Positions 6,997-30,177 of a stretch of DNA of 32,000 nucleotides are shown in pieces (positions within the stretch are counted from its first letter, which is position 1; every line of letters starts with the position of its first letter). The position numbers and the translations under genes were made by a program. The notes under the pieces are model-generated. The model was not told where the DNA came from. It did not search any database and saw nothing but the letters and a program-made list of their open reading frames with translations. The stretch comes from Nostoc sp. PCC 7120 = FACHB-418. GTDB taxonomy: Bacteria > Cyanobacteriota > Cyanobacteriia > Cyanobacteriales > Nostocaceae. The stretch spans positions 240,001-272,000 of the forward strand of contig NC_003276.1 of NCBI RefSeq assembly GCF_000009705.1, written 5' to 3'.

Positions 6997-8706
6997 AACT
7001 ATTTTGATATTTTTGAAGTAGATGATGGTGGTACTAAATGGCATCCAGTGCGTGAAAAACGAATTATGAAGGTTCTGAAATGGAATACACCAAAACTTGT
7101 TGAGTTAATTGAGTCTGAATCTCTAACTTTACAATTAATTCAACACCCAAAGATTCCTCGGAGTACCCTAGATGACTATTTTACTTTTGTTCCAAGCAAT
7201 AGTCTTTTAACACTGCATTGCTTAATTATGGATAAATTCGAGGGGCAAAACTTGGAGGAATGGATAGAATCTAAGGGAAAAATTTCTCAATCTTTAGGAA
7301 TGGATTGGCTTAAACAGTTAGTCCAAATACTTGACACAGTACACCGTTCTGATTTTTTCCACAGAGATATTAAACCTTCAAATATAATTCTTCAGCCAAA
7401 TGGTCAACTAGCATTAATTGATTTTGGAACTGCTCGGCGTGTTACTGACACCTACTTAGCGAAAGTTAGTGGGAGTGGAGGTACTGATACAGGTAGGGGA
7501 GGACGGCATGAAATTACAAGCATTGTCTCACCTCGTTATACTCCACTAGAGCAAATTAATGGGCAAGCTGTGCCTCAGTCAGACTTTTATGCTTTAGGAC
7601 GGACTTTTGTGAGGCTAGTTACGGGTACTTCCTTGATGTGCTTACCCACGAATCCAAAAACAGGTAATCTAATCTGGCGCAATAAAGCACCACAGATTGA
7701 CAAACCCTTAGCCGACTTCCTAGATGAACTCATGTCTTCCTTGCCAGGTCAACGTCCGCAGACTACGCGAATAATTTTGCAGCGATTGGAACGTTTGCCA
7801 CTACAATCGAAAATTAATCGAGTAGTTACATCAAAGGCATTTCAAATAAGTGCGACAACTTTAGTTTTTATCGGTTGTTTGGGGTTATTTAATTTATCAC
7901 GACCTGCAATAGCAGAGTATTTATTAAATCAAGGAAAAAATGCTCAACGAGAAAATCGGCTTGATGATGCTGAAAATAATTTTCGTCAAGCGATCGCTTT
8001 GGAACCGGATATGGCTAAACTAGTATCTGAATTTTATGTGCAACAGGCAGATAGACGTAGTATTCCTCTGGAAGAAGCTAAAAAATATTATGAATTAGCT
8101 ATTAAATATAATTCCCAAAGTGATGTGGCTCATAATAATTTGGGGTTGGTATGTCAAAGATTACAGGACTCTCAATGCGTTGAAAATAGTTATGCAGTTT
8201 TATTTAAGCTAAAACCAAATAGTTGGGAGGCTCATTATGGGTTAGGTAATTTTTATGATGATTTAGGCAAGTATAATTTAGCCCAAGAACAATATAAATT
8301 AGCCATATTAAATAATAAATTAGCTTTAGATGCTGTTAGTAACTTAGCTAGGATAAAAAACTTGCAAAGAGAATATGATGCGGCTATAGAAATTGCTAAA
8401 GGAGGATTAACTAAAGCTAAAGAGCCTGCGTTAAGGGCAGCCTTATATAAGAGCATAGGATGGGCTAAGTTAGAACAAAAAAAGTATATAGAAGCTAAAA
8501 ATAATTTAGAGAAAGCAAAAGAACTAGACTTTAAAAGAACTGATACTTATTGTCTATTAGCACAAACGCAGGAAGCTTTAAAGGAAATTAACGATGCCAG
8601 AATGTTATGGGAAGTATGCTTAATTTCTGAATCTAATCTACCAGAAGTTCAAAGATGGCGAATACAGATATTGAACAGATTACTAGGAGATATTAAGGTA
8701 GAATAG
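6952..8706 (+). CDS. Ser/Thr protein kinase - TM - TPR repeat protein, 3' part of the IS-split gene. Native coding sequence starts at 6997; 6952-6996 is IS-derived.
   Basis: Kinase motifs are HRDIKPSNIIL, IDFGTAR and SPRYTPLEQ. A hydrophobic segment (TTLVFIGCLGLFNL) is followed by TPR-like repeats. 5494-5637 plus 6997-8706 equals 1854 nt, which is 618 codons in frame (..TDNPY|NYFDIFEVDDGG..). Confidence 0.85.
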   Translation: MILGIPRFLNGGGCQNYFDIFEVDDGGTKWHPVREKRIMKVLKWNTPKLVELIESESLTLQLIQHPKIPRSTLDDYFTFVPSNSLLTLHCLIMDKFEGQNLEEWIESKGKISQSLGMDWLKQLVQILDTVHRSDFFHRDIKPSNIILQPNGQLALIDFGTARRVTDTYLAKVSGSGGTDTGRGGRHEITSIVSPRYTPLEQINGQAVPQSDFYALGRTFVRLVTGTSLMCLPTNPKTGNLIWRNKAPQIDKPLADFLDELMSSLPGQRPQTTRIILQRLERLPLQSKINRVVTSKAFQISATTLVFIGCLGLFNLSRPAIAEYLLNQGKNAQRENRLDDAENNFRQAIALEPDMAKLVSEFYVQQADRRSIPLEEAKKYYELAIKYNSQSDVAHNNLGLVCQRLQDSQCVENSYAVLFKLKPNSWEAHYGLGNFYDDLGKYNLAQEQYKLAILNNKLALDAVSNLARIKNLQREYDAAIEIAKGGLTKAKEPALRAALYKSIGWAKLEQKKYIEAKNNLEKAKELDFKRTDTYCLLAQTQEALKEINDARMLWEVCLISESNLPEVQRWRIQILNRLLGDIKVE

Positions 8707-8762: not shown

Positions 8763-9788
8763 ATGACAAAGAAATTTTATAAAAATAAAACATTATTCAC
8801 TGTTGGGTTTACAGCTATTACATCAATAATGTTCTTTGGGAGTCTAAGTCCAGTGATGGGATCTCCTCGGACTCAAGCTCAGGTGCGTTGTATTGAACCA
8901 ATAGGACGGGTTATCAGCACAGGCGATCGCTATATGCGTTCTGGCAGTTTGTTATGCCCAACAGATCAGATATCACCAAAACAGGGAGAGGAAGTTAAGG
9001 TACTTTGTTACTCTAGTAGAGAACATTTATTAGTAGAAGCAGGGAGCAATTTTCCTGTTAGAGAAATATGTAAGCCACCAGCGTTTTCTTCAGTAAGGAA
9101 ATGTACACTATTGAGTCCACAAGACTGTCCAAATCGTAAAGGGCCGAATCGAAGAGAAAATGCACCTAATATTATTCAGCCTTATGGCAAAGTTATAATC
9201 AACCGTCGTCCTTTGATATCCTGGACTGCTGTACCAGGGGCAACCAGCTACACTGTGCAACTTTCTGGCGGTGAAGTGAAGTGGGAAAAGGAAGTGGTAG
9301 GCACAACACTATCCTATCCTCAAGACCAACAAGAGTTGTCCTACGGTAGTGCGAATAAAATTATAGTGATTGCAAATAAAGGTAACGATCCCATCATTGA
9401 TGATACGTTGGTAGTGCATGTGTTACCTGAAGGATGGGTAAGACAAATTAATCAAGCTATTGAGCAAGTTAAAAGTTTGGGATTGTCTGCCGATGAAACA
9501 GCCTACATTGACCTAGATGCAATTTATATGTCTGAAAGACTTCTCAACGACACAATTGAGAATTTACAAGCACGAGTTGCGGCAGGCAGTTTTAATCCTA
9601 CTCTTTATCGTATCTTAGGCGATCGCTATGTAGAGGTGTGGATGCCTCAACTCGCAAAAACTGCATATATAAAAGCACTTCAACTAGCTAGGTTTCAAAA
9701 AAACTCCGGTGAAGTGGAGTTGGTGCAAGAACGTTTGTCGGCGCTATCTCAGAGCCAACTGCCAACCAGAACAAATCCTGCCCAATAG
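8763..9788 (+). CDS. Secreted protein of unknown function, with a TPR-like helical C-terminus
   Basis: 341 aa. The N-terminal signal-like segment is KTLFTVGFTAITSIMFFGSLSPVMG. Cysteines are spaced through the N-terminal half. The helical C-terminal part includes YRILGDRYVEVWMPQLAKTAYIKALQLA. I recognise no family. Confidence 0.65.
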   Translation: MTKKFYKNKTLFTVGFTAITSIMFFGSLSPVMGSPRTQAQVRCIEPIGRVISTGDRYMRSGSLLCPTDQISPKQGEEVKVLCYSSREHLLVEAGSNFPVREICKPPAFSSVRKCTLLSPQDCPNRKGPNRRENAPNIIQPYGKVIINRRPLISWTAVPGATSYTVQLSGGEVKWEKEVVGTTLSYPQDQQELSYGSANKIIVIANKGNDPIIDDTLVVHVLPEGWVRQINQAIEQVKSLGLSADETAYIDLDAIYMSERLLNDTIENLQARVAAGSFNPTLYRILGDRYVEVWMPQLAKTAYIKALQLARFQKNSGEVELVQERLSALSQSQLPTRTNPAQ

Positions 9789-12217
9789 TAAGGGTGTTGG
9801 TACTGAGGATGAGAAAGTAAGCCCAGTTGTGCTTGTCGCAGAGCTTCGGCTTTAGAGAGGTTGTTATTTAAACCCTTATAGAATTGTTCAACAAGCATAG
9901 CTGTAGATTCGGCATCTACTAACCACAAGGAAGCAAGTGTAGTTCTTGCGCCAGCTTGGGCCGCTACCCCGGCGATACCCAAAGTAGAGCGTTTGTTACC
10001 TTTAGCAGTTTGGCAGGCGCTGAGAACTAATAACTCAATTGGGTCTTGATTATTTTGAACTTTCAACCAGCCATCAAGTTCTTGAATGTTAATGGGTTTG
10101 TCCCAAGCTAAAAGTACTGTTTGTTCAGGGTCAGAACTAAACTGACCGTGAGTAGTAACATGAACAATAGGAAATTTAGCAGTTTTCAATTCTTGTTGAA
10201 AATTGTTGCTAGTGAATTGCTCATTCAGCAACTTAACTGATGCTCTAGTTTGTTCTTTAACATCAACTACTTCTTTTTCTACTTCTGGCAAAGCTTTTAA
10301 TCCGGGAGGAGCATTTTGTGCATAGAAACTAGGGCTAGGTTGAGAAAGCCCAGCAATTAGAGCTTTTAATTGTTCTTTAAGCAAAGCTTTGGGTGGTCGG
10401 ATTCGAGAACCTAGTGTGGTTGTAATACTATAATTTTTGAACAAGTAATCTTTGCCATCGTGTAGCAGACTCATAGGAATGCTTTGAAAGGAATTATCAA
10501 GAGTAAAAATGATTGTCCCAGATGATGGTAAATACTTTTTTACGGGCGCAATTAATTGCTGATATAATATTTGCGAATGAGAAATAATTACAGATTTTTG
10601 GGTATTAGCCAGCCCTTGATCTTGTAAAGTATTTAAAAAATAGTCAATATTAGTTCTGATGGTTTTTGCCTTAACGGAATGATGATGTAGTGATTGGTTC
10701 TGTGAGCGAACAATTACTTCTATACTATCCCCTAAGTCTATAATATTAATTACTGTCGGCTTATTTTTTAGATTAGCAATACTACTTATAGATATAAATT
10801 CCAGCTTGCCACATTTTAAGTAATTTTCTAACTCTGCTAATTGCAGTTGTTCGTAAGCTTGAATTACTTGATCTAGCTGAGGATGGGAACCACTAAGTAG
10901 TAAGCGTATATAATCTCGATATACAGGTTCTACTTTTTCATAAAATGAAAATTGTAAGTCTAGATTAGTTGTGGAGAGATTGTCCCGTATTTTATTAAGA
11001 TTTTGAATTGCTACTTTATAATATTGAATAGCTTCCTGATATTTTCCTCGTTTTTGATATAGTTTACCTAATTGCTGTTGCCATTGATACGCTATATCCC
11101 ATGCTTGAATTGATTGAGCTATACTTAGCGCTTCACTTAAATAAGTATAAGCTTGTTCTGGCTGTAGCTCTCCTAATATACCATTGCTGTACGATATTAA
11201 TCGCTTGTTATTTATACTATTAGCTTTTCGTAAACTGGCTAACGCATACTTTCTAGCGAATGAGTTTAGATTTTTATCAATTTGATTCAGACTTTTAGCA
11301 AAATTTAGTTGAGCATAAATTGATTCATTTGTTGAGACTTCTTCAAATAGATGAGAATTATTCAATAAGAGATTAGCTGTCTGTTGAATTTGCTGCTCAA
11401 TTTCTAGGGAAGTATTTTGAGATTTAGTATGAGTTAGCCACTGTCTATAATCCAGTAACAAGCTTAATTTTTGTAAAAGTGACTGTAACTTAACAGAAGC
11501 AGAAATATTGTTTTGATTAATAATCCTTTGGTATATTTCTAGCCCTTCTAATGCTTTTTGATGGCTTAGTTTTACTGTCTGCTGGCGAAATGTGGGTTCT
11601 TCCACTTGCAAATATTTATCCTTGAAAAACTTATAAGCATAAAATTTAGTATTACCTAAACTTAGTAATGTTGAACTAGCATTAAAATTAGGTTGCTTTT
11701 CAGAAAGTATAAGAGTTTTGCTTAACACTGTTTCTGAATCGGCGATTTTTCCTAGCCTACGCAGCGCATTACCTAAATTTTGCAATACTAATAAATCAAC
11801 AGATGATGCTGTTTGTTTGTCAAAAACAGCTAATAGTTTTGTAATTTCCGCTTGTTGTGTTGGAGAAGTATTACAAATTCCAGAAGCAGAGTTTAGTTTC
11901 ATTGCCTCTAGTAGTATATTACAAGCACGGGGGGATAAACCTAATGTTTGCAATGCAATACTTTGATTAATCAGGCTCCCTTTTATCCCCTGCTCGTCTT
12001 GAAGTCGTCGGTAAATCTGTGTTGCTTGCTGCCATGAGGTTAATGCTTCTGATGCTTGACCTTGATTTAACTGCTCTTGTCCTTGTTGGATCAATGATTC
12101 TGCTTGCTGTAATTGTTCATTATTCGCTTGAGCCAACATCCTTGATGGTTCATTGATAACCAAAGAACAGCTAACTATAACTATGAATAAATACTTAAGC
12201 AGGTGTTGATTTTTCAT
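9749..12217 (-). CDS. TPR repeat - CHAT domain protein (caspase-fold peptidase-like)
   Basis: The start is reassigned to the ATG at 12217 (MKNQHLLKYLFIVIVSCSLV..., hydrophobic leader). It overlaps the upstream stop codon by 1 nt. TPR-like repeats fill the N-terminal half. The C-terminal CHAT region has candidate catalytic His (VHVTTHGQF) and Cys (LVLSACQTA) residues and the usual YYWAGFVLVG tail. Confidence 0.9.
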   Translation of the reverse strand: MKNQHLLKYLFIVIVSCSLVINEPSRMLAQANNEQLQQAESLIQQGQEQLNQGQASEALTSWQQATQIYRRLQDEQGIKGSLINQSIALQTLGLSPRACNILLEAMKLNSASGICNTSPTQQAEITKLLAVFDKQTASSVDLLVLQNLGNALRRLGKIADSETVLSKTLILSEKQPNFNASSTLLSLGNTKFYAYKFFKDKYLQVEEPTFRQQTVKLSHQKALEGLEIYQRIINQNNISASVKLQSLLQKLSLLLDYRQWLTHTKSQNTSLEIEQQIQQTANLLLNNSHLFEEVSTNESIYAQLNFAKSLNQIDKNLNSFARKYALASLRKANSINNKRLISYSNGILGELQPEQAYTYLSEALSIAQSIQAWDIAYQWQQQLGKLYQKRGKYQEAIQYYKVAIQNLNKIRDNLSTTNLDLQFSFYEKVEPVYRDYIRLLLSGSHPQLDQVIQAYEQLQLAELENYLKCGKLEFISISSIANLKNKPTVINIIDLGDSIEVIVRSQNQSLHHHSVKAKTIRTNIDYFLNTLQDQGLANTQKSVIISHSQILYQQLIAPVKKYLPSSGTIIFTLDNSFQSIPMSLLHDGKDYLFKNYSITTTLGSRIRPPKALLKEQLKALIAGLSQPSPSFYAQNAPPGLKALPEVEKEVVDVKEQTRASVKLLNEQFTSNNFQQELKTAKFPIVHVTTHGQFSSDPEQTVLLAWDKPINIQELDGWLKVQNNQDPIELLVLSACQTAKGNKRSTLGIAGVAAQAGARTTLASLWLVDAESTAMLVEQFYKGLNNNLSKAEALRQAQLGLLSHPQYQHPYYWAGFVLVGSWL

Positions 12218-14748
12218 CAGGCTTTGGGTTTTGTTTGAGAATGACACTCACTCGCAGATAGAGTTGTATCTGGACTAACCTTATTTGCTTGAGCAGTTAG
12301 GGTTATTGAGCCATCTAAGTTTTTCACCCATCCTTGTGCTTCTATAATCTCATTACCTGCTGATAGTTTAATATTAGAAATATTTGTAGTTGAATTTACT
12401 TGCCACCTAGATTCAACATCTGGTAAATCTTCTGGGCTTGTTGCTAATCCTCCTGTACCAGCAACAATAAACTCATTAATTCCATTTGATCTTCCTTGGC
12501 AGGCGGAAGCAATCTGTGGTAGCTCTTGAACTGTCTGTGATTTAACTGGAGTTTCTGCTAAAAAGATATTTGCATTGATGTCAACTGTTCCGTCAATACC
12601 TCTTTGTGATTTGGAGTTTACTTGAGTATTAGGTGAAAGAAAAACGCCTTGGGCATTGATTCGGATATTGCCGCCTCTACCCTCGAAGGCATTAGCTACG
12701 ATTTGGTTATTGTTTGAACCTACCAGAATGCCTGTGTTCATTCTAATGTTACCGCCGTTGCCCGTGCCTCCAGCCGTTGCTGTAATCCTGCTATTATTTA
12801 AAAATAAATTCCTAGAATTGAGAATAATATTGCCACCTTCCCCAATCGTAGTGGTGGCGTTAACTTCTCCTTGAGAGTTAATGTTTATTGTGTTCGCACT
12901 AATCCTAATATTTCCTGCATCATTAACACCTTCATTTCTCGCATTAATCAGCCCACCATTACTTATATTTATAATATCTGTATTTAAAAATATATTGCCC
13001 GCCTGACCAATAAGTAAAGGAGGTTGTCGATACAATAATTTTTGCAAATTCGGATCGACTAAAAGAAAATTTGATGAATTAATAAAACTTGGTGAGTTTG
13101 AATTAATATTCGTACCTACTACATTTATTGAATTACTTGAGTTAATGGAAATATTACCAGCCTTTCCCGCAGATAGTGTGCTACTACTTATACCTCCTCC
13201 GTTGCTAATAATTAAATTTAAAGTATTTATGTCTATGTTACCACCATTGCCATGACCAAAAGTGGATGACGTAATATTACTAGGACGTAATAATGCTGAT
13301 TGTCCTGATATATCTATGTTTTGACTCTTTATAAAAACATTTCCGCCTTGCCCACTACGAATAGTGCTAGAGCCTAATGAAGCTCCACCATCTTTAATGA
13401 TAAGATTTTCCAATTCTAAAAATAAATTTCCTCCTGCACCTGAACCAGATGCAACAGTATTGAAAACTCCATCTAGCCCTATGATTATATTGTTAATTTT
13501 ACCTGCAATATCTCCACCCTTTCCAGAACTATAACTGAAAGTATTGATTCCACCTAAGCCATCAGGATTAGCATAAGAAGGGGTATCACCGGAAATTTTT
13601 AAAGAATTTGAATTAATAGTGATTAATCCACTAGGGGCATTAGTAAAAGTAGTAGTTGCTATTTGTCCACCTTGAATTGTTACATCTTTTACGTCAAGTT
13701 GAATAGACTCGCCAGGAGTAAAGCCAAAATTGCTTGTATATATTGCACTTAAAGCTAGATTAGATGATCCTTGAATATTTAGGGATTGAGCATCAATTTT
13801 AACAGCACCAGTTTTAAAGCCATGATTTTGTGTAAATACTAATGAACCATCTAAAATGTTAATATTTTTACCTTGAATATCAATAGTATTACTTGTGTCT
13901 GCATTACTATTAACGAATAATAATGAATTTTTTATTAGAGTTATATTCCTAAATGTATTAACATTATTGAAATCAAAATTTATATCATTGCCCTGCTGCT
14001 CTAATCCAACGTATCCATCTAGCACACTGCCAATCTGGAATTTTCCATTTCTGGTGCTTAGTATCCCCCCTTCAAGTGAAACATTTCCGCCTATTAAGGA
14101 AATATTGTTTCCTGGTTGTACTTGTAATCCAGAAAATCTACTAGCGTCTATAGGAGTAATAAAATCGAAATTCCTATTAGCAATTCTATTTATATTATGA
14201 CCGCTACCTTGAAGTCGGATCTCTCCAGAATTACCTATAAAAACTAACCCTACAGGAACGCTAACTTTTAACAAAGGGTCAAGCTGATTGCGATTAGCAC
14301 TAAAATCTATATTGTTAGAAAACTTAATACTATTTGCTGTAGTAGCCAAAAAAGAACCACCAATATTTAATCTAGCACTATTACCAAAAAAAAATCCGTT
14401 GGGGTTGAGAATAAATAAATTAGCTTGACCATTGTTTCGGATTGTTCCATTAATATTAGAAATAGAATTGCCAGTTACTCTGCTAATAATATTTTGTATA
14501 ATAGAAGCGTTATTAAAATATGCAGTGTCTCCATAATTAATTGAAAAATCTTTAAAGCTATGAAATAAATTCCCTCCTAATTGAGTGCCGCCCTCAATAA
14601 ATATTGTATTACCTTGGACATTTACGGCACTATTATTTTGTGAGCTATTATCAGCATTTATTTGAGCTTGACACAATGGAATGAAAGTTGTGAAAATTGT
14701 AATTAAAAAAGATATTTCTGTAAATAAAATAGTAAATTTGCTATTCAT
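12217..14748 (-). CDS. TpsA-type exoprotein with a filamentous haemagglutinin N-terminal (TPS) domain and beta-helix repeats
   Basis: 843 aa. The signal peptide is MNSKFTILFTEISFLITIFTTFIPLCQA. The TPS motif region is NLFILNPNGFFFGNSARLNIGGSFLATT. Many GGNI/GNI-type repeats follow. Confidence 0.9.
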   Translation of the reverse strand: MNSKFTILFTEISFLITIFTTFIPLCQAQINADNSSQNNSAVNVQGNTIFIEGGTQLGGNLFHSFKDFSINYGDTAYFNNASIIQNIISRVTGNSISNINGTIRNNGQANLFILNPNGFFFGNSARLNIGGSFLATTANSIKFSNNIDFSANRNQLDPLLKVSVPVGLVFIGNSGEIRLQGSGHNINRIANRNFDFITPIDASRFSGLQVQPGNNISLIGGNVSLEGGILSTRNGKFQIGSVLDGYVGLEQQGNDINFDFNNVNTFRNITLIKNSLLFVNSNADTSNTIDIQGKNINILDGSLVFTQNHGFKTGAVKIDAQSLNIQGSSNLALSAIYTSNFGFTPGESIQLDVKDVTIQGGQIATTTFTNAPSGLITINSNSLKISGDTPSYANPDGLGGINTFSYSSGKGGDIAGKINNIIIGLDGVFNTVASGSGAGGNLFLELENLIIKDGGASLGSSTIRSGQGGNVFIKSQNIDISGQSALLRPSNITSSTFGHGNGGNIDINTLNLIISNGGGISSSTLSAGKAGNISINSSNSINVVGTNINSNSPSFINSSNFLLVDPNLQKLLYRQPPLLIGQAGNIFLNTDIINISNGGLINARNEGVNDAGNIRISANTININSQGEVNATTTIGEGGNIILNSRNLFLNNSRITATAGGTGNGGNIRMNTGILVGSNNNQIVANAFEGRGGNIRINAQGVFLSPNTQVNSKSQRGIDGTVDINANIFLAETPVKSQTVQELPQIASACQGRSNGINEFIVAGTGGLATSPEDLPDVESRWQVNSTTNISNIKLSAGNEIIEAQGWVKNLDGSITLTAQANKVSPDTTLSASECHSQTKPKA

Positions 14749-16207: not shown

Positions 16208-16518
16208 ATTTGTAAAGGTAGAAAGTCTGGACTGAAAAATGAATTTAGCTTTGAGATAGGAGAAAAATAATGGCTGATCTACATTATGAGATTGAAAGAA
16301 AAGTTAATAAATGATGAGTGATAGTTGTATTCAGCACAAAAGCCGATTCATAGAAATAAACAGCCATGAAAAACCCCGGTCACAGTAGGTGAGGCGGGGA
16401 TAAGTAAGACCATATCTCATACATAGTACATAAATAATCTATACTTAGACACAACGGACTTAATATTACTACCATAGATATAAGTGAATTAGTCAGTAAT
16501 CTACTGAAATGTTTAACT

Positions 16519-17169
16519 TTAATCAACTGCTCCATCAAAAATTTCTTCTTCATCCGAAATATCTGACCACTCCTCGTCCCATGCCTGCTCGTTGTAGACC
16601 TTAGTAGCTTGAGCAATTTTCAGGCGATGAGCAACCGAAACACAATTCCTTGGTTGCCAACCGATGTTCGGGTATTTACCTTGCAGATATCTCACAGCAT
16701 TCTGACAGTCATTAATTACTGGGATGTCTAAGTTTAAATGTCTTCGTAACCCAATGCCTAAACGAATTGCCTCAATCTCATGGTTGTGAAAGTAGTATTC
16801 TTCATCTTCAGGAGTAGAAATTGTGAGTATTCGTACCCAAGAATGAATATCATAGACAGCTTTTGCTACAACTACATTGAATTGTTGAGGCTTGTAGTTA
16901 TCTAAAAACTTATCCACAGCAACTTCATCTTCCAAATCAATATCTACACCCTGTGCGGATATTAAATCAGAGATATCATCAAGACTTTCAACAAACGATT
17001 CACGCCAATCTTGAATGCTTTGGGTGCTAAAAAATTGAGTCGCATCATCAAATGATATTTTTTCCCAGCCTGCATCTGTAGTTATCTGCTGGCTAGTTTT
17101 AGGGATAAACAGATTCTCGTGCGCTAACCACGGGGGGACATTCTTTTGCTTTTTCTTATGTTTACCCAT
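16519..17169 (-). CDS. Hypothetical acidic protein, transcribed divergently from the DNA-binding gene
   Basis: The start is moved to the ATG at 17169 (MGKHKKKQKN...), because the 49 upstream codons of the tracked ORF look non-coding. The product is 216 aa and very rich in Asp/Glu, with a DEEWSDISDEEE tail. Function unknown. A DNA-mimic or anti-restriction role is only a guess. Confidence 0.55.
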   Translation of the reverse strand: MGKHKKKQKNVPPWLAHENLFIPKTSQQITTDAGWEKISFDDATQFFSTQSIQDWRESFVESLDDISDLISAQGVDIDLEDEVAVDKFLDNYKPQQFNVVVAKAVYDIHSWVRILTISTPEDEEYYFHNHEIEAIRLGIGLRRHLNLDIPVINDCQNAVRYLQGKYPNIGWQPRNCVSVAHRLKIAQATKVYNEQAWDEEWSDISDEEEIFDGAVD

Positions 17170-17307
17170 AGTCAGAAGAAATGCAAATATATAAGAATCA
17201 AATGAAAAACCCCAACCTAAAAAAAGGATGGGGATATATGAAAACGTTTCTACTATGATGATACAAGTAAATAGCTGTTCAACCACCTTCAGTCTGGAGG
17301 TGGTAGC

Positions 17308-18237
17308 ATGAACCAACCTCCCAGCAAGCGCAAAAGACTCACGCCTACAACTACCGATAAACCAAAGCCAGCACTAAAGCCAGCACAAGAGGCGGAAAAT
17401 CCTAGCGCAGTCACTGTTGATATAGAGGCGGTCGAAGTGCCAGAGATGACCGAGGAGGAACAGCGCGATCGCCTGAACTTGGAGCGCAAGGTAGAGAGAG
17501 CGTTTGTGGAAGCGGGGAAAGCGTTAATGGAATTGCGCGATCGCCGGCTGTATCGAAATACGCACAAAACATTTGAGGAATATTGCCGCGATCGCTTTGG
17601 ATATAGCCGTGATGCTGCATACTTGAAGATGTCAGCGACGAATGTATATGAGAATATTCAGAAACATTTGCCGACCAATGGTCGGCAGATACCAATGCCG
17701 ACCAATGAGCGCCAATTGCGTTCTTTGGCTAAGGCCGAGTTAGAACCGAAAGTTCAGGCTAAAGTATGGCGGCAAGCAGTCCAAGAAGCGAAAGGTAAAA
17801 CCCCATCTGGTCGAATAGTTCAGGATGTTATAGACCGGATACGCGATCGCACTTCTGTACCCAATCCCTACCAAGTAGGTGAAATTTGCGTTCTGCATCC
17901 TAAAGACAACCCCGACTTGAGGGGCAAAAGTGGCTACTGGGGTGTAGTAACTCATGTAGGTGAGTATAGTTGCACAGTCAAGTGCTGGGATGGCGACTAT
18001 ACAGCCAAAGTTGAGCATTTGAAATCTCTGGAATTACTAGAAGATGATTGTAAATTCATGCAGCAGCTATGCGAAAGACTGCGGCGGTTGCATGAGGTAG
18101 CCGTGCGGGATGAGGCAGTAGATTGGCTGTTGCAAGGATTGGGGAAACAGTCTAAACCGTATTTGTCTGCATTGCAGGCGAAGCTGTTGGCGGCGGTGGA
18201 AAAGGAGTATAACTTGATTTGGAGGCAACAGAAGTGA
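17308..18237 (+). CDS. Plasmid/phage-type DNA-binding protein (DUF3102/ParB-like HTH region) with a C-terminal small beta-barrel-like domain
   Basis: GGAGG lies 7 nt upstream of the ATG. FVEAGKALMELRDRRLYRNTHKTFEEYCRDRFGYSRDAAYLKMSA is the motif I associate with DUF3102/ParB-like HTH proteins of plasmids and phages. The C-terminal 120 aa are repeated as a paralog fragment at 31225-31632. Confidence 0.75.
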   Translation: MNQPPSKRKRLTPTTTDKPKPALKPAQEAENPSAVTVDIEAVEVPEMTEEEQRDRLNLERKVERAFVEAGKALMELRDRRLYRNTHKTFEEYCRDRFGYSRDAAYLKMSATNVYENIQKHLPTNGRQIPMPTNERQLRSLAKAELEPKVQAKVWRQAVQEAKGKTPSGRIVQDVIDRIRDRTSVPNPYQVGEICVLHPKDNPDLRGKSGYWGVVTHVGEYSCTVKCWDGDYTAKVEHLKSLELLEDDCKFMQQLCERLRRLHEVAVRDEAVDWLLQGLGKQSKPYLSALQAKLLAAVEKEYNLIWRQQK

Positions 18238-18824
18238 TGCAGGTGCGGTTCGTTCTTGCTAAGAGCTTCTAGAAAATAGAAGGGTATGAGCAAGGTATAT
18301 TTTGAAAGCTACTTTCAAAATGTATAACTGTTCTTTTGATGTAGGTGAGCTAAGTAACATAGAACGGCAAGCCCTACCCTTGAAGAGGTCAAGTGACTCC
18401 CTACCTGCCCACAGTGACCATACTCGGAATTATGGAGGCTGAAGCTGGGAACAGGACGCAATCAGTTGTAAAACAAGCAGGTAACAACACTGGCGTTAAC
18501 GGGGAGATGGCATGAGTAAACAAGTCCTAGAAAAGTGTCTTAACGTTAAGCTGCAACCTGGAATCAAAATGCAGACTTCATCTTCTATATTCCCGCAGCA
18601 AAACTGTATATTAGCTGCAATACCTCAAGGGGAGAAGATAGGCAAAGTGGACTGCTCTAAACCATCAAATCAATCAAAAGAACGGAACGAATAAAAACGC
18701 CATAGAGGTCTAGGGGAAGGTCGAATCCCTGGTAAGTATGACGAGATACAGAATTCCTCTATAGCGGGTAGGACAGAGCGTAACTGCTCTGAGGTGTTCA
18801 GAAAACGCGATCTGGGAGTAAAGC

Positions 18825-19211
18825 ATGGTTAGACACAGCGCCAAAGCTAGTGAACTTTGGAAATCACTACCCTGGAAGAAATTTCGGGCGAACCTTTTCC
18901 GCTTACAAAAGAGAGTGTTTAAAGCTGTTCGAGTAGGAGACAAGCGCAAAGCTAGGTCACTACAAAAGCTGATTCTGAAATCCAAAGCAGCTAGGTTTCT
19001 GGCGATTCGTCAAGTAACTCAGCTAAACGCTGGTAAAAACACTGCTGGTATTGATGGTAAAACTGCCTTAACTCATGAGGAGAGATTTAACCTCGAAGTG
19101 CTGTTAAGACAGCAAGATTGGTATCACAACAAACTCAGGATGATACCAATTCCCAAGAAAGATGGTTCCATCAGATACCTCAAGATTCCCACTATTGCGG
19201 ATAGAGCTTGG
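18825..19211 (+). CDS. Outer-intron reverse transcriptase/maturase, part 1 (129 codons), interrupted by the inner intron
   Basis: MVRHSAKASELWKSLPWKKF...IPTIADRAW is collinear with the inner RT up to ADRCW. After 19211 the tracked ORF reads intron sequence (VRFVV*). Confidence 0.85.
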
Positions 19212-19759
19212 GTGCGATTCGTTGTTTAGTGAATCACGGTATAAAGTCCGTACATAACTAAGCCAACTGTAATTAAAATTACGGTTGAACTCTCAAATTG
19301 ATGAAGGTGCAAGTCCTTCCCGCTAGATTCAAGCGTGACTCCTTATCTGCCCACACTGAGTAAGCTCAATTCTTACAGGGTGAAGCTGGGAACAGGGCGC
19401 AATCAGACGGCTGTTATGGGCTGACACTGGTGCTAATAGGGAGTTCCTACGGTGAAACAGAGCCTAAAAAAGTAACCCACTGTCAAGCAGGGCATAAACA
19501 TTAAAAGCCTGACTTTATCAGAGTTTAAACCCGCAGCATAACCAGGCAATAGCTGCAAGAATCTTGGGTTTCTGATGGTTAAAGTGGCTACACCTAAAGG
19601 AACAAGTAATCATCTGAGGGAACGAATAAAAACGATTTGAGAGTCATGGATACGTCGATTTTCCATGTAGGTGAGGTGAGACACGGAAATCTCTCAAGCT
19701 GGGTAGGATGCAGCGTAATTGCTGCAAGGTATTCAGAAAAACACTTAGCGGAGAAGAGC

Positions 19760-21334
19760 ATGATTAGGCACAGTGTAAAAGCTAGTGAATCTTGGAAGAA
19801 TCTACCGTGGAAGAAATTTCGCAGGGATTTATTTCGCCTACAACGACGAGTGTTCAAAGCAGTTCAAGCAGGAAACAAGCGGAAAGCTCGGTTTTTGCAA
19901 AAACTTATTCTGAAATCGAAAGCGGGCAGATTTTTGGCAATTCGTCAAATATCTCAACTAAATGCTGGTAAGAAAACGGCAGGTATTGATGGTGTTAAAT
20001 CCCTAGATTTTAATGGGCGTTTCGAGTTAGAAATTACGCTAAAACAATCAAGTGGAAACTGGCATCATCAAGAACTACGGGAAATCCCAATTCCTAAAAA
20101 GGACGGGACTACCAGGATGCTTAAAATTCCAACTATCGCGGATAGGTGTTGGCAATGCCTCGCCAAATACGCTTTAGAACCAGCACACGAAGCAACCTTC
20201 CACGCTCGGAGCTACGGTTTTAGGACTGGACGTGCGGCACATGATGCCCAACAATTCCTGTTTTCTAACTTAAGTTCCAAAGCAAAAAGAATATCTAAGC
20301 GAGTAATCGAGCTTGATATCGAAAAGTGCTTCGACAGGATAAACCACTCAACCATCATGGAAAATTTGATAGCCCCAAAAGGTATCAAACTTGGTATCTA
20401 CCGATGCTTAAAAGCAGGGATAAATCCAGAATTTCCAGAACAGGGAACGCCCCAAGGTGGAGTGGTAAGTCCATTATTAGCCAACATCGCTCTCAATGGG
20501 ATTGAAAGTATTCACAGATATCATAAAGATAATCAAAGAATCACTAACAAAACCCCGGAATCAGACATTAGATACCCATCTGTTCGGTATGCCGACGATA
20601 TGGTAATAGTGCTTAGACCTCAAGACGATGCTAATGAGATACTTGCCAAAATTGAGGATTTTCTAAACGCACGGGGAATGAAGGTAAGTGCTAAGAAAAC
20701 CAAGATAACCGCTACGACAGATGGTTTTGACTTCCTTGGCTGGCACATCATTGTGCAAAGCAACGGAAAATTTAACTGCACTCCCTCAGAGGAGAATTTT
20801 AAAAAGTTTCGTCAGAAGGTAAAAGCTATCGTTAATTGCTCGAATTATGGTTCGTCTGTAAAAGCCGAAAAGCTCGCACCAATAGTTAGAGGATGGAGAA
20901 ATTACCATAGGTTCTGTGATATGTCAGGGTCAAGGTTCTCACTTTGGTTCCTTAGTAAACGGACACATACGGTATTTAACAAGGAAACGAAGAACGACCA
21001 CGAATCAAGTATAAAACTTGCACAAAAGGCATTCCCAAAAGTTCCTTGCTTCCAAAACTCCTATGTCATGGTCAAAGGTGATAAATCACCTTACGACGGA
21101 GACTTAACGTACTGGAGCGAACGCAATAGCAAGCTCTATGACGGGGAAACCTCTAAAACTATTAAAAAGCAAAACCATACGTGTGGATACTGTGGCTTAA
21201 AGTGTACAAGTGAAGAACGAGTACACTTACACCATATAGATGGAAACCACAAAAATCGGAAACCCAAAAACCTGATTGTTGTGCATGAGTCGTGCCACGA
21301 TTATATCCACATGGGCAAAAGGGTAACACCCTAA
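19760..21334 (+). CDS. Inner-intron-encoded protein: reverse transcriptase, maturase (X) and HNH endonuclease
   Basis: The start is set at ATG 19760 (MIRHSVKASESWKNLPWKKF), by homology with the outer RT start. RT motifs include PQGGVVSPLLANIALNG and RYADDMVIV. The C-terminal HNH region is CGYCG...HLHHIDGNHKN...VHESCHDYIH. Confidence 0.9.
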   Translation: MIRHSVKASESWKNLPWKKFRRDLFRLQRRVFKAVQAGNKRKARFLQKLILKSKAGRFLAIRQISQLNAGKKTAGIDGVKSLDFNGRFELEITLKQSSGNWHHQELREIPIPKKDGTTRMLKIPTIADRCWQCLAKYALEPAHEATFHARSYGFRTGRAAHDAQQFLFSNLSSKAKRISKRVIELDIEKCFDRINHSTIMENLIAPKGIKLGIYRCLKAGINPEFPEQGTPQGGVVSPLLANIALNGIESIHRYHKDNQRITNKTPESDIRYPSVRYADDMVIVLRPQDDANEILAKIEDFLNARGMKVSAKKTKITATTDGFDFLGWHIIVQSNGKFNCTPSEENFKKFRQKVKAIVNCSNYGSSVKAEKLAPIVRGWRNYHRFCDMSGSRFSLWFLSKRTHTVFNKETKNDHESSIKLAQKAFPKVPCFQNSYVMVKGDKSPYDGDLTYWSERNSKLYDGETSKTIKKQNHTCGYCGLKCTSEERVHLHHIDGNHKNRKPKNLIVVHESCHDYIHMGKRVTP

Positions 21335-21343
21335 GAATATCGG

Positions 21344-21377
21344 AAGCTGGGTGCGGCGAAAGTCGCACGCCCAGATT
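21344..21377 (+). ncRNA. Group II intron domain V (inner intron)
   Basis: AAGCTGGGTGCGGC-GAAA-GTCGCACGCCCAGATT: a 34-nt hairpin with the AGC triad, a GAAA tetraloop and a 2-nt bulge on the 3' strand. A domain VI-like hairpin with a bulged A follows. Confidence 0.8.
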
Positions 21378-21420
21378 TAACAGAGAGGTGCGGCGGATAA
21401 TACCGCCCATCGACTCTAAC

Positions 21421-22620
21421 CAATGCCTAGCGAAATATGCACTAGAGCCAGCACACGAAGCAACTTTCCATGAACATAGCTATGGATTTAGACCCGGACG
21501 CTCTACCCATGATGCCCAAAGTCAGATAGCCAACTATCTAGCATCCAGTAAAGGAGGCATCAACAAGAGAATCCTTGAGCTTGACATAGAAAAATGCTTC
21601 GATAGGATAAATCACTCCACCATAATGTCCAACCTTATCGCCCCACAAGGGCTAAAACAGGGAATATTCCGAGCATTAAAGGCAGGAATAAACCCAGAAT
21701 TTCCCGAACAAGGAACACCTCAAGGTGGTGTGGTAAGTCCATTATTAGCAAACATCGCCTTAAATGGTATCGAGGATTTACACCAATACCACGACTGCAA
21801 TTATAAGAAAATAACACCAAGTACACCGGAAAGGAACATCAAGAAAGCTTGTGTAAGATACGCCGATGATATGGTGTTCTTCTTAAGACCAGAAGACGAT
21901 GCAGAAGAAATACTTGAGAAAATCAGCCAATTCCTAGCACAAAGAGGACTAAAGATCAGCGAGAAAAAGACCAAGCTAACCGCCTCGACAGATGGATTTG
22001 ACTTTCTAGGCTGGAATTTCTATGTACAGCAAAACGGAAAGTTTAGATGTGTTCCCTCAGAGGAAAACTACAAAGCATTCCGTAAGAAAGTTAAGAAAAT
22101 CGTCAACTGCTCGAATTATGGTGCTAAGGTGAAAGCCGAAAAACTTGCGCCAATAGTTAGAGGATGGAGACAATATCATAAGTTCTGCAAAATGGATGGG
22201 TCACGTTTCAGACTATGGCACACCAGAGATAGAGCTTTTAGAGTATTCAACAAAGAAACCAAACAGGATAGGCACTCAGCCGAAAAACTCACACAAGAGG
22301 CATTCCCCACGGTTCCTTACTCCGAAAACGCCCATATCAAAGTCAAAGGTAATAAATCGCCCTTTGATGGAGACTTAACTTACTGGAGCAAAAGAAACAG
22401 TAAATTATACGACGGCAGAACCTCAAAACTATTACAAAAGCAGCATCATACCTGTGGATACTGTGGATTAAGTATGCTCTCAGATGAGAGGGTACACCTA
22501 CACCACATAGACAATAATCATAATAACTGGAAGGATTCAAACCTGATAGTAGTACATGAAAGTTGTCACGATTACATCCACATGAGCAAAAGAGGAAGTG
22601 AAATTTATCCAATTCCCTAG
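21421..22620 (+). CDS. Outer-intron reverse transcriptase/maturase/HNH, part 2 (399 codons)
   Basis: It begins QCLAKYALEPAHEATFHEHSYGFRPGRS, in phase with part 1 (387 nt). Motifs include PQGGVVSPLLANIALNG, RYADDMVFF and the HNH region CGYCG...HLHHIDNNHNN...HESCHDYIH. The 43 codons the ORF track places upstream (21292-21420) are inner-intron domains V and VI. Confidence 0.85.
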   Translation, partial: QCLAKYALEPAHEATFHEHSYGFRPGRSTHDAQSQIANYLASSKGGINKRILELDIEKCFDRINHSTIMSNLIAPQGLKQGIFRALKAGINPEFPEQGTPQGGVVSPLLANIALNGIEDLHQYHDCNYKKITPSTPERNIKKACVRYADDMVFFLRPEDDAEEILEKISQFLAQRGLKISEKKTKLTASTDGFDFLGWNFYVQQNGKFRCVPSEENYKAFRKKVKKIVNCSNYGAKVKAEKLAPIVRGWRQYHKFCKMDGSRFRLWHTRDRAFRVFNKETKQDRHSAEKLTQEAFPTVPYSENAHIKVKGNKSPFDGDLTYWSKRNSKLYDGRTSKLLQKQHHTCGYCGLSMLSDERVHLHHIDNNHNNWKDSNLIVVHESCHDYIHMSKRGSEIYPIP

Positions 22621-22686
22621 CGTGAAATCCCGTAATTAGGTGATAGGGAACAAAGATAGAAGGTAACTAACCCCTAAGAACATCGG

Positions 22687-22720
22687 AAGCTGGATGAAAT
22701 GAAAGTTTCACGTCCAGATT
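22687..22720 (+). ncRNA. Group II intron domain V (outer intron)
   Basis: AAGCTGGATGAAAT-GAAA-GTTTCACGTCCAGATT. It has the same architecture as the inner domain V, with four compensatory pair changes in the upper helix. Confidence 0.8.
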
Positions 22721-23246
22721 TAACTGAGAGGTGCGGATGATAATACCTCCCATCGACTCAACCCAATGCTACAAATTAAAAGTAGTAGGAATAGCGGATT
22801 GAAATGGTCGGAGGTCGCGTTATTTTAAAAAACTCTAATTCCTTTCGTGAGCGAAAAGCTATTTAATCAACAATTAGAGTCGGGCTGCGAAGCTTGCCAA
22901 GCAACTGATGTAATCATCTACACCCCGCTAACAAACTGGGCGTATCACATGGTAGACACGAATATTTATAAGTTGGCAACTAAATTATTAAACTAAGAGT
23001 CTTATTCATTATGTAATTCACTTTGCTCTATTAATACTTTGTATGAGTAAAAATATAAAAGCAATTTCTATCGCAATGTTGATATTTGCTTCGATATTAT
23101 CAAAATGGAGAGATTACAGAAAATTGTATCGAATCGTTTAATAAGGTCTGATTTACGTTCTCTGTTTTCTTCAGAATCGGAGTTTGGGGAATAGCTGCAT
23201 TAATTATTTATAAATCTTTTAGAGGTAATAAGGAAATCACATCATA

Positions 23247-26190: not shown

Positions 26191-27414
26191 TCACACGACT
26201 TGAAGTCGCGTGATTCCTGCTTCAACGATCTCTGCCTGAATTGCTCCAGGACTGACGAGTTCTCCACAGGCGTTTAGAGCCTCCGGGATACCCACGGCGG
26301 CTATTAATCTCAATCCCTCACCTAATATGTTCAACGCTGCGTTATTGTCTCTCAAATTGTAACCACTACAACCAGGACAAGCCCATTCACGTAACTTTAA
26401 ATCTTTGACCAAAGGGTTGATAAAACCACAATGATTACAAGTCTGAGAGGAGGGATAAAACGTACCAACCTTCTGCACAATTCTGTCATGCCAAAAAGCT
26501 TTATATTCAAGCATGGCAACGAACTTAGACCAACTAGCGTCTGAAATACTCAATGATAATTTATGGTTTTTTACCATGTTGGCAACTCGCAAATCCTCAA
26601 TACAGATAATACTGTTTTCTTTGATTAGACGAGTTGACAGCTTGTGCAGAAAGTCATCTCTGAGATTGGTAATTCTTTCGTAGCTACGAGCCAGCTTGAT
26701 TTTCGCTTTGACTCGATTAGTACTGCCTTTTACACTGCGGGATAATTTTTTATGTGCTTTACGTAATTTACGAGTTTGAGTCCGGTAATATTTGGGATTA
26801 TCTACGACTTCCCCATTACTAGTAACGAGATAAGACTTTATGCCTAAGTCTATGCCAATATTTTGACTAACTTGGGGATGTTTCTCAATCTCTGTATCAC
26901 ACAGAATACTAGCAACATATTTACCAGAAGAAGTCCGAGTTATGGTAACGTTTATAAGCTTTCCGGTAACTTCTTGGGACTTATGAAACTTCACCCACCC
27001 TAACTTCGGAAGCTTTAAACGATTCTCTATTACCTGGATGTTACCGTTTGTTAAATTCGTCTTGTAAGACTGCTTGCAACCATGCTTCTTTTTAAACTTG
27101 GGAAAGCCTACTCCTTTTTTGCCTTTGACCTTCTTTAAGTCAGCAAAAAAGTTTTTGTATGCTGTCTCTAAATTCTTGAGCGAATTCTGTAAGGCAAACT
27201 TATCTACTTCCTTCAACCATTCAATTTCTTTCTTGAGTAAAGTTAAACGTTGACTACAAGCGTTATAGTTTAATGTTTTCTGTTCGGACTGATATAGCTC
27301 TTGCTTTAATGCCAGAAAGTGGTTATACACAAACCTTGCACAACCAATACTCTTATTGATTAAGACCTCTTGATTGTGATTAGGAATGAGTGTAACTTTA
27401 AACGCTCTCTGCAT
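26191..27414 (-). CDS. tnpB: TnpB (OrfB) RNA-guided endonuclease
   Basis: 407 aa. RuvC motifs are [22 protein letters not shown] and [10 protein letters not shown]. The zinc finger is CNHCG...CPGCS. It overlaps the tnpA 3' end by 17 nt. Confidence 0.95.
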
Positions 27415-28438: not shown

Positions 28439-28527
28439 GATGCTGTTGGCGAAGTCAAAAGTAGACAGGAATTCCGTAGAGTGTCACTCTAAGATTGGCA
28501 CTATATATACCCAGGAGCGCAAGGGAT

Positions 28528-30177
28528 ATGTCACTAAAACCACAACCCATCAGTCCTGTGCCAGAGGAAACAGTTCGTGTCGCCCGTGCTGCCTTCCCCA
28601 AAGGAAACCTTTATCTCACGCTGCGAGATGAAATTGGCACACTTTACAGTGATAGTGACTTTACCGCCTTGTATCCCACTCATGGTCAACCAACAGTTAC
28701 ACCTTGGCGACTGGCATTAATCTGTGTGTTGCAATTTATTGAGGATTTGCCAGATCGACAAGCTGCTGAAGCTGTCCGTAGTAGGATTGATTGGAAATAT
28801 GTTTTGGGGTTGGAATTGACTGACCCAGGGTTTGACTTCTCTGTATTATGTGAATTTCGCACCCGATTGATAACTGGTGGTGCAGAGCAACAACTGCTAG
28901 ACACTTTACTCAAGCAATTCAAAGAGCGCGGATGGCTCAAAGAAAGAGGAAAACAGCGCACGGACTCTACTCATGTGCTGGCTGCTATTCGCAACTTGAA
29001 CCGACTAGAAGGGGTAGGTGAAACCCTACGTGCAGCCCTCAATGACCTAGCTACAGTTGCGCCAGACTGGTTACGTTCATGGGTGCCAGAGGAATGGTTT
29101 GAACGCTACGGTCGTGCCATAGAAGAGTATCGCCTACCCAAAGGCATTGCTGCTCGTAAAGAATATGCTGAGATGATTGGCACAGATGGTATGCAATTAC
29201 TGATATCTGTGTGGGCAGAAGATGTCCCAGATTGGCTCAGGCTTGTACCAGCAGTCGAAATTTTGCGACAGACTTGGATACATCAATATTATGTGGAGAA
29301 TGAGCAAGTAAGATTGCGGGCTGCGAGCGACTTAGCTCCTTCTGGTAGTCGTTTTGACTCTCCTTATGACATCGATGCTCGCTTTGGTAATAAACGGAGT
29401 GTGACTTGGACTGGGTATAAAGTGCATCTGACGGAAACTTGTGATGAGAACCAAGTCCATTTAATCACTCATGCCATTACCACTCAAGCTCAGGTTTCAG
29501 ATGTTACCCAGACTGCACTTATCCACGAGGCATTGGCCGCCAAAGACCTGCTCCCCAGTCAACACATTGTTGATGCTGGCTATATCGATAGTAATCTTAT
29601 CGTCACCAGTCGTAAGCGTTATCGAATAGATTTAGTTGGGCCAGTCCGCCCGAATGGTAGTTGGCAAGCTAAAACTCCAGGCGGTTACGACATCAGCCAG
29701 TTTACCGTGAACTGGAATACAAAACGGGTGACTTGTCCTCAAGGTAAAAAAAGTACCAAAAAGTGGGTACCGACTCAGGATAAATGGGGCAATGCAGTGA
29801 TTAATGTGAGATTTCCTCGCAAAACTTGCCGACTTTGCAACGCCCGTGCTTTATGCACTCGCTCAAAAACTGAGCCAAGAGAACTGACACTACGTCCAAA
29901 AGCTGAATACCAAGCACTGCAAACCGTGCGACAACAACAACTTTCCACTGACTGGAAAAAGCTCTATGACACCAGAGCAGGAGTTGAGGGGACGCTATCT
30001 CAAGGAATTGTCACTTTGGGGTTGCGGCAAGCTCGCTACATTGGTTTAGTTAAAGTTCGACTCCAGCACTTGCTGAGCGCCGTAGCTCTCAATGTGGTAC
30101 GTATGGTCTCTTGGCTACATGGTCGAACTCATGCAAAAACCAGGATTTCTCGATTTGCTGCTTTAGCTCCAGCTTGA
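28528..30177 (+). CDS. IS1182-family DDE transposase (DUF772 N-terminal domain)
   Basis: The start is set at the ATG giving MSLKPQPISPVPEETVRVARAAFPKGN. LPDRQAAEAVRSRIDWKYVLGLELTDPGFDFSVLCEFRTRL is the characteristic DUF772 region. A Cys-rich segment is CPQGK...CRLCNARALC. The family name is assigned from memory of similar annotated transposases. Confidence 0.85.
   Translation: MSLKPQPISPVPEETVRVARAAFPKGNLYLTLRDEIGTLYSDSDFTALYPTHGQPTVTPWRLALICVLQFIEDLPDRQAAEAVRSRIDWKYVLGLELTDPGFDFSVLCEFRTRLITGGAEQQLLDTLLKQFKERGWLKERGKQRTDSTHVLAAIRNLNRLEGVGETLRAALNDLATVAPDWLRSWVPEEWFERYGRAIEEYRLPKGIAARKEYAEMIGTDGMQLLISVWAEDVPDWLRLVPAVEILRQTWIHQYYVENEQVRLRAASDLAPSGSRFDSPYDIDARFGNKRSVTWTGYKVHLTETCDENQVHLITHAITTQAQVSDVTQTALIHEALAAKDLLPSQHIVDAGYIDSNLIVTSRKRYRIDLVGPVRPNGSWQAKTPGGYDISQFTVNWNTKRVTCPQGKKSTKKWVPTQDKWGNAVINVRFPRKTCRLCNARALCTRSKTEPRELTLRPKAEYQALQTVRQQQLSTDWKKLYDTRAGVEGTLSQGIVTLGLRQARYIGLVKVRLQHLLSAVALNVVRMVSWLHGRTHAKTRISRFAALAPA

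Follow-up and report, generated by a model that had tools for sequence, protein, structure and literature searches.

Group II introns lodged inside other group II introns, known as twintrons, have been described in several systems. In Thermosynechococcus elongatus, the intron TeI3, which lacks an open reading frame (ORF), is found inside TeI4 introns; one protein serves both partners, and insertion into another mobile intron is described as a strategy of proliferation (Mohr, Ghanem & Lambowitz 2010, PMC2882425). Nested introns also occur in Methanosarcina acetivorans (Dai & Zimmerly 2003, RNA 9:14, as summarised in PMC4424553), and the Tery_4732 twintron of Trichodesmium erythraeum, which is ≈5.4 kb long, is spliced sequentially in vivo (Pfreundt & Hess 2015, PMC4649490). 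Here, we describe an element of this kind from plasmid pCC7120alpha of Nostoc sp. PCC 7120, located in a stretch of 32,000 nucleotides (nt) (contig NC_003276.1, positions 240,001 to 272,000) that we refer to as the window and from whose first letter all positions are counted. A group II intron lies nested there in the reverse transcriptase (RT) gene of a related group II intron, and we have very little doubt that the whole is a genuine twintron. The architecture itself is already known from the Thermosynechococcus and Methanosarcina twintrons. No description of the PCC 7120 twintron was found in the literature searched; the genome sequence is from 2001, and there may be an entry for the twintron in the Calgary intron database. 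The significance of the locus lies in its series of alleles (empty site, outer intron alone, twintron, and twintron with a deleted inner protein gene), which are found in relatives of a model cyanobacterium that is amenable to genetics.

Alleles and boundaries of the twintron

The outer intron occupies positions 18243–22763 of the plus strand, on which all parts of the element lie, and is 4521 nt long with its insert and 2312 nt without. Its 5′ segment (18243–19211) comprises the GUGCGG 5′ end, domains I–III and IVa, and the first 129 codons of the intron-encoded protein. The 3′ segment (21421–22763) contains the remaining coding region, domains IVb, V and VI, and a 3′ end that reads ..CUCA-ACC. 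Between the two lies a complete inner group II intron of 2209 nt (19212–21420), inserted directly 3′ of a Trp codon in the outer RT gene (..IPTIADRAW / QCLAKY..). The insertion point is 387 nt into the outer ORF, in the coding loop of domain IV and outside the ribozyme core. Both introns have a 5′ end of the conserved GUGYG type (GTGCGG at 18243 and GTGCGA at 19212), and their nucleotide sequences are 67% identical over the full length.

The extent of each intron could be read from alleles in related strains. Plasmid A of Trichormus variabilis ATCC 29413 has the same neighbourhood, with flanks that are 95.7% and 99.9% identical to those in the window, and an empty site for the whole element that reads ..GAAGTGATGCAG / CAATGCTACAAATT.., i.e., GATGCAG / CAATGCTAC. 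The window thus carries a 4521-nt insertion at 18243–22763. An uninterrupted copy of the outer intron was found at a different genomic site, adjoining a TraG-like gene on another plasmid, in T. variabilis NIES-23 (AP018218.1; locus L210, in our numbering of related loci). Window segments 18243–19211 and 21421–22763, when joined, were 100.000% identical to this copy over 2312 nt. A further uninterrupted copy from another sample (L211) was 99.4–99.9% identical and, judged by its neighbour genes, appears to sit at the same site as L210. Taken together, the empty site and the outer-alone alleles place the inner intron at exactly 19212–21420 and the outer 3′ end at 22763. The original prediction, that a group II intron sits within the RT ORF of a related one and that the inner intron comprises the 2209 nt at 19212–21420, is therefore borne out by the empty, outer-alone and twintron alleles, and by the perfect identity to the L210 copy upon excision.

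The twintron was identical base for base in five further independent assemblies and is thus not an assembly artefact. A variant is present on plasmid AP018217.1 of T. variabilis NIES-23 (L213), in which the twintron is identical elsewhere and 694 nt of the inner protein gene are deleted (≈window 19951–20643). With its ribozyme parts intact, the L213 inner intron looks like an ORF-less derivative in the making.

The outer intron had been predicted to span 18243–22762. Its 5′ end was correct, while the empty site, the uninterrupted copy and the family linker all put its 3′ end at 22763. The MAFFT and Rfam alignments also gave 22762, through a gap misplaced in the domain VI tail of the outer intron; this end was ruled out by the empty site, the second copy and the 3′ ends of the family. 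The domain VI linker in this intron family is 3 nt long and reads either AAC or ACC; L014 and L021, which have a common target, carry one form each, and this is the sole difference between them. The first pair of the last domain VI helix covaries as well: the outer intron has U-A, the inner intron has A-U and the relative L002 has G-C. Given this linker variation and helix covariation, the ..CUCA-ACC terminus of the outer intron is normal for the family and represents no defect.

Ribozymes and intron-encoded proteins

A search with Rfam covariance models confirmed one part of the predicted ribozymes. RF00029, which describes domains V–VI, gave exactly two matches in the 32-kb window, at 21342–21420 (inner; 51.1 bits, E = 2e-7) and 22685–22762 (outer; 52.3 bits, E = 1e-7), compared to a gathering score of 40 bits. 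For domains I–IV, however, the E-value search of 18000–23000 returned no model match, only domain V–VI models, and the 5′ fold therefore rests on family covariation. The first ≈560 nt of 43 diverse family introns were aligned and analyzed with RNAalifold, which yielded 125 pairs in domains I–IVa, 100 of them with compensatory changes. Each of the two window introns keeps 122 of the 125 pairs (family median, 121).

Domain V was located by the Rfam match and the family alignment at 21343–21378 in the inner intron and 22686–22721 in the outer intron. Domain VI follows at 21382–21420 and 22725–22763. The inner intron has its bulged branch-point A at position 21413 and the linker AAC; in the outer intron, the branch-point A is at 22756 and the linker is ACC. 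The domain VI stems covary among the 43 family members, and the two predicted branch points are both the eighth nucleotide from the respective 3′ end. Compensatory changes were seen at 17 of the 25 pairs in domains V–VI, of which the inner intron keeps all 25 and the outer intron 24. The two domain V hairpins, previously reported to differ at four pairs, in fact differ at five, all of which can still pair: three are changed on both sides (G-C/A-U, C-G/A-U and G-C/A-U) and two on one side. Both ribozymes had been proposed to be under structural selection; the retention of 122/125 pairs in each and of 25/25 and 24/25 pairs at the 3′ end, together with the compensatory changes in the family, supports such a constraint. 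Likewise, structural alignment of 19212–21420 showed that the consensus helices of domains I–IVa and V–VI are kept. By their sequences, and with domains I–IVa taken from the family alignment, we would class both as RT/maturase-encoding introns of the bacterial IIB type and the chloroplast-like lineage.

The protein encoded by the inner intron (19760–21334) consists of 524 amino acids (aa), followed by a stop codon, and has RVT_N, RT and maturase (GIIM) domains and a C-terminal Cys/His-rich segment. Its sequence matches alr7241 (BAB78325.1) from pCC7120alpha of Nostoc sp. PCC 7120 at 100% identity, and its closest solved relative is the Thermosynechococcus T.el4h maturase (6me0_C, E = 3e-68). 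The Cys/His segment, CGYCG..HLHHID..H, gave no Pfam match; it looks like a DNA-binding/HNH endonuclease region.

The outer protein is encoded in two parts, of 129 codons ending in ..IPTIADRAW (18825–19211) and of 399 codons plus stop starting with QCLAKYALEP (21421–22620). Joining these yields an in-frame protein of 528 aa with no stops or frameshifts, which reads ..IPTIADRAW / QCLAKYALEP.. across the junction. Removal of the inner intron thus restores the outer RT frame, as had been claimed, to give a protein with RT and maturase domains: RVT_N, RVT_1 and GIIM are above the Pfam cut-offs in both intron-encoded proteins. The two proteins are 71% identical over 522 residues, and align end to end with two small gaps. 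Furthermore, the reconstructed outer protein exists as a real protein, P0121, which is 100% identical over the 528 aa and occurs in T. variabilis NIES-23 and Anabaena sp. FACHB-709. No intact gene for the outer protein was found in the PCC 7120 reference, where the alr7242 fragment is the only sequence with a PCC 7120 accession.

The annotation of the locus needs to be corrected, in that alr7242 and the 134-aa ORF at 18825–19229 are two halves of one intron-encoded protein. The former, a 442-aa ORF in GenBank (21292–22620; BAB78326.1) that bears the name alr7242 in a proteomics supplement, contains the second coding part, but begins within the inner intron in a different frame and crosses the intron boundary. 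The latter ends in VRFVV*, a tail that is read from the 5′ end of the inner intron (19212–19229). Low-confidence modified peptides have been assigned to alr7241 and alr7242 in the supplements of PMC8557916, and are not decisive as to splicing. One of them, PRLYPHGQK (posterior error probability (PEP) 0.058), falls in the artefactual N-terminus of alr7242.

Target recognition, mobility and history

The loops that carry the exon-binding sites (EBS) were positioned by family covariation. EBS1 is located in a conserved hairpin loop, and 16 of the 20 rows listed have a 6/6 match between it and positions −6 to −1 of the exon; the two window introns recur in these rows as L004–L006. For EBS2, a 5-nt segment that lies 3′ of a conserved AAAAGYRNCYNA motif at a fixed distance, a 5/5 match to exon positions −12 to −8 was obtained in 23 of 38 introns, nearly always at the same offset; most of the failures were cases in which the anchor had matched another motif. 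Initial guesses of UCAAGC for the inner EBS1, UUAUCUGC for the inner EBS2 and ACUUC for the outer EBS2 were discarded, as these fall in segments that are conserved across introns with different targets, and the sites were relocated by covariation.

Through EBS2 (CUGUC, 19480–19484) and EBS1 (CCAGGC, 19542–19547, in the loop of hairpin 19532–19556), the inner intron can pair with a target at 19200–19211 in the outer RT gene. This target consists of the intron-binding sites (IBS) IBS2 (GAUAG, 19200–19204) and IBS1 (GCUUGG, 19206–19211), separated by an unpaired A. All 11 positions of GAUAG-A-GCUUGG are paired (6/6 + 5/5), two of them as G-U. The corresponding codons, (G)AT AGA GCT TGG, encode D-R-A-W, a conserved RT motif. 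The inner intron has its own copy of this motif at 20138–20159 (GCGGATAGGTGTTGG / CAATGCC, encoding ADRCW / Q). Where the target in the outer gene reads GATAGAGCTTGG / CAATGCC, its counterpart in the inner gene reads GATAGGTGTTGG / CAATGCC, and this Cys-codon version pairs only 4/6 with the inner EBS1. The closest relatives, L007 and L087, likewise have ADRCW and a 4/6 match to EBS1. Among 89 copies of the motif in related RT genes, 40 (≈45%) pair 11/11 with the inner loops and 32 pair 10/11, and the unoccupied site in the uninterrupted relative L002 is identical to the target of the inner intron. The inner intron is thus predicted to target a motif that is common in its relatives and mismatched in its own gene. 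This gives an explicit, testable targeting rule: insertion at D-R-A-W codons, with the invader's own gene mismatched at two IBS1 positions. The Cys codon could be a self-protective adaptation; Cys is also encoded at this position in further family members, whose EBS sequences differ.

A broader version of this idea is that the sublineage comprising the window's inner intron, L007 and L087 uses the D-R-A-W codons of sibling RT genes as its natural homing site, with its own gene protected by the change from Ala to Cys. The three introns have EBS2 CUGUC in common; the EBS1 of L087 is CCAAGC, that of the other two CCAGGC. If true, this would make the element an "intron of introns" with built-in self-immunity, in which the protein supply of the host intron, and hence its mobility, depends on the parasite splicing out. 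We nevertheless regard this broader version as improbable. L087, the closest relative with known flanks (88% protein identity, the same EBS2 and an EBS1 that differs by one base), sits in an unrelated, non-RT gene at the look-alike site GGATAGAGCTGGG. The flanks of eight inner-lineage relatives (L007, L087–L089, L218–L220; L007 being without flanks) contained no further nested copies. A metagenome scan for GAYMGNGCNKGGGTGCGRYTCG was uninformative: among the matches listed, at least 120 in number, none followed the RT motif (..PT.ADRAW), and almost all were located in sequence rich in G+C and seem to be due to chance.

The outer intron faces a 5′ exon target at 18231–18242, made up of IBS2 (GAAGU, 18231–18235), one unpaired base and IBS1 (AUGCAG, 18237–18242). 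Its EBS1 (CUGUAU, 18604–18609) lies in the loop of hairpin 18594–18618 and pairs 6/6 with AUGCAG, while EBS2 (ACGUU, 18543–18547), which was identified by family covariation, pairs 4/5 with GAAGU. At the L210 site, the numbers are 5/6 for EBS1 and 5/5 for EBS2, the exon there reading AACGU. The outer intron seems to occupy the L210-type site in two lineages, and this site is more likely its original home, with the window site a secondary insertion. The 100% identity of two outer copies at different sites would also imply very recent mobility.

These observations suggest the following history. The outer intron would have inserted 5 nt downstream of a hypothetical gene, and a related intron would then have retrohomed into the outer RT gene just past the Trp codon, through pairing of its EBS2 and EBS1 with the D-R-A-W codons. 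The inner intron presumably makes its own protein and splices out, thereby re-creating the outer ORF, and would spare its own gene because two of the six IBS1 pairs are lost with the Cys codon (ADRCW). The outer ribozyme is expected to fold with or without the inner intron, and its splicing might be aided by any of three proteins: its own, once the inner intron has been removed; the related protein of the inner intron; or, where a strain has a second copy, the identical one supplied in trans.

Splicing of either intron is inferred from these features. The suggestion that the architecture imposes an order of splicing holds for the production of the outer protein in cis: the ORF is split, and since no intact copy of the gene was found in PCC 7120, the outer protein could be made there only after the inner intron had been spliced. 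It does not extend to the outer ribozyme. The insert is located in the coding loop of domain IV, outside the catalytic core, and the ribozyme could therefore fold with the insert present; prior inner splicing would be needed only for making the outer protein in cis. The inner protein, at 71% identity, could help the outer intron to splice, and in NIES-23 and FACHB-709 the uninterrupted copy encodes an identical outer protein in trans.

Several points count against an actively moving twintron with the targeting described above. The EBS2 of the outer intron falls one pair short of a full match at the window site. The uninterrupted outer copy in NIES-23 and FACHB-709 contains an identical, perfectly matched target for the inner intron that has not been invaded, and no second copy of the inner intron was found in the twintron-bearing strains. 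Nesting at the D-R-A-W codon was seen in none of 80 related loci, sampled as one genome per species. The deletion in the inner protein gene of L213 is also in keeping with limited activity. The inner intron may thus be weakly mobile or no longer mobile.

Three other explanations of the locus were considered. The entire 4521-nt element could have arrived in one step, through reverse splicing of the twintron RNA in unspliced form, and not in two insertions one after the other. Only empty (ATCC 29413) and full-twintron alleles were seen at the window site, with no outer-only allele, an observation in favour of this route, and composite mobility is one of two routes considered for the T. elongatus twintrons (PMC2882425). 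The evidence in T. elongatus, however, favoured separate mobility of the inner and outer introns (PMC2882425), and the uninterrupted outer copies at another site, in two lineages and with a perfect EBS2 match, indicate that the outer intron moves alone. We consider arrival as one unit rather unlikely, even though the present sequences fit both routes.

We also think it unlikely that the twintron is a fossil, i.e., inert plasmid DNA in which both introns are recognisable but no longer splice or move. The uninvaded target in the second outer copy of the same strains, the 694-nt deletion in the NIES-23 allele and the single copy of the inner intron are all compatible with such a state, and the location of the element outside any gene means that there would be no selection for its removal. 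On the other hand, both protein genes in the window are full length, without stops or frameshifts, both ribozymes keep 97–100% of the family consensus pairs, equal to the family median, and the EBS/IBS match of the inner intron is perfect. The identity of the outer copies at two sites over all 2312 nt, with the very recent mobility that it implies, also counts against a fossil. Finally, the possibility that the introns are not nested, but are adjacent or recombined fragments or an assembly artefact, has virtually no likelihood left: tandem intron arrays are frequent in related cyanobacteria (L011, L035, L047, L064), but excision of 19212–21420 gives 100% identity to an uninterrupted intron elsewhere, and five independent assemblies have the same structure, which refutes it. 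We thus retain the interpretation of the locus as a genuine twintron.

Genomic surroundings and comparison with known twintrons

Upstream of the twintron is a 309-aa hypothetical ORF (17308–18237, plus strand) that has no Pfam match and is likewise annotated as hypothetical in plasmid A of ATCC 29413. The stop codon of this ORF is separated from the outer intron by 5 nt; the twintron is therefore intergenic and interrupts no host gene. The gene downstream encodes an ankyrin-repeat/GUN4 protein. A scan for promoters and terminators gave counts at the level of shuffled sequence. Further upstream, at 16213–17178, the window has ≈830 nt more than ATCC 29413 plasmid A, which has 138 nt there; the extra stretch overlaps a 265-aa minus-strand ORF (16519–17316) with no Pfam match.

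The surroundings of the twintron are rich in insertion sequences. Two IS605-family copies of 1366 bp, 100% identical and in direct orientation, are located at 1995–3360 and 5633–6998. Each encodes a 402-aa OrfB/TnpB-like protein (OrfB_IS605 and a Cas12f1-like TNB domain), and the pair flanks a STAND/NB-ARC NTPase gene on the minus strand (3757–5289). Together, the two copies may form something like a composite transposon, with a possible defence gene inside it. Another TnpB-like OrfB gene, the third, is found at 26191–27414 (minus strand), and a DDE transposase gene at 28495–30177 (plus strand). Adjoining minus-strand genes at 9749–14748 encode a CHAT-domain/TPR protein (831 aa) and a TPS secretion domain protein (842 aa), and a Ser/Thr kinase-TPR gene (6952–8706) and the STAND NTPase gene lie upstream of this pair. 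The CHAT/TPS, kinase-TPR and STAND genes form a plasmid cluster of signalling or conflict-type genes.

Other intron-rich loci were seen among the relatives. Nostoc sp. UHCC 0302 plasmid NZ_CP151100.1 carries an independent twintron (L003, 3911–8556) with two RF00029 matches, at 7334–7430 and 8479–8556. In its outer-like intron, the RT gene is broken after ..LDIEKC by an intron that belongs to a different class and encodes a 611-aa protein, at a point ≈65 codons further on than the inner insertion in the window. Since this RT gene is interrupted by an intron of another class, insertions into RT genes would seem to recur in Nostocales, but not through the window's inner intron. Two or more group II introns occur in tandem, without being nested, in L011, L035, L038, L047, L064 and L088, with four RT matches within 5.5 kb in L064, which suggests local clustering of intron insertions in related cyanobacterial loci.

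Intron-within-intron arrangements created by mobility are also known from organelles, in the chloroplast twintrons of Euglena and a self-invading plant mitochondrial intron (PMC7049729). Those introns are mostly degenerate or ORF-less and are located in essential genes, and their splicing order is usually obligatory. The Trichodesmium twintron resembles the present one in being cyanobacterial and composed of two protein-encoding group II introns. There, however, the inner intron lies in domain I of a distant host intron (the proteins are 30% identical) within a protein-coding gene, and its location in domain I forces the splicing order structurally, whereas here it is found within the ORF in domain IV of a close relative (71%), and the element as a whole is intergenic.

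The Methanosarcina introns, as far as the summary in PMC4424553 describes them, home site-specifically into the ORFs of related introns and have no coding flanking exons, such that the intron serves as a perpetual homing site. Similarly, the inner intron has its target in a conserved region of the protein gene of related introns, and this target recurs across the family, as seen from the 40 of 89 copies that pair at every position. According to the same summary, the archaeal introns reach up to five levels of nesting and go through recurrent cycles that deletions balance; the present case is one of single nesting on a cyanobacterial plasmid, and the inner intron occupies one site only.

PCC 7120 is a convenient organism in which to ask whether one mobile intron is able to parasitise and gate another, whether maturases serve each other's introns and how ORF-less derivatives originate. 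A further comparison is with T. elongatus. In both cases, a chloroplast-like IIB intron from a cyanobacterium is inserted at a conserved position in the coding region of a related intron, outside host genes, and the best solved relative of the inner protein is the T.el4h maturase from that system. Five copies of the twintron arrangement are present in T. elongatus, compared to one here. The inner introns of T. elongatus are ORF-less and lie between the first ATG and the second, so that the outer protein can still be made from the second ATG. The inner intron of PCC 7120, in contrast, encodes its own full protein and splits the RT domain past codon 129, and a functional outer protein would be impossible without inner splicing.

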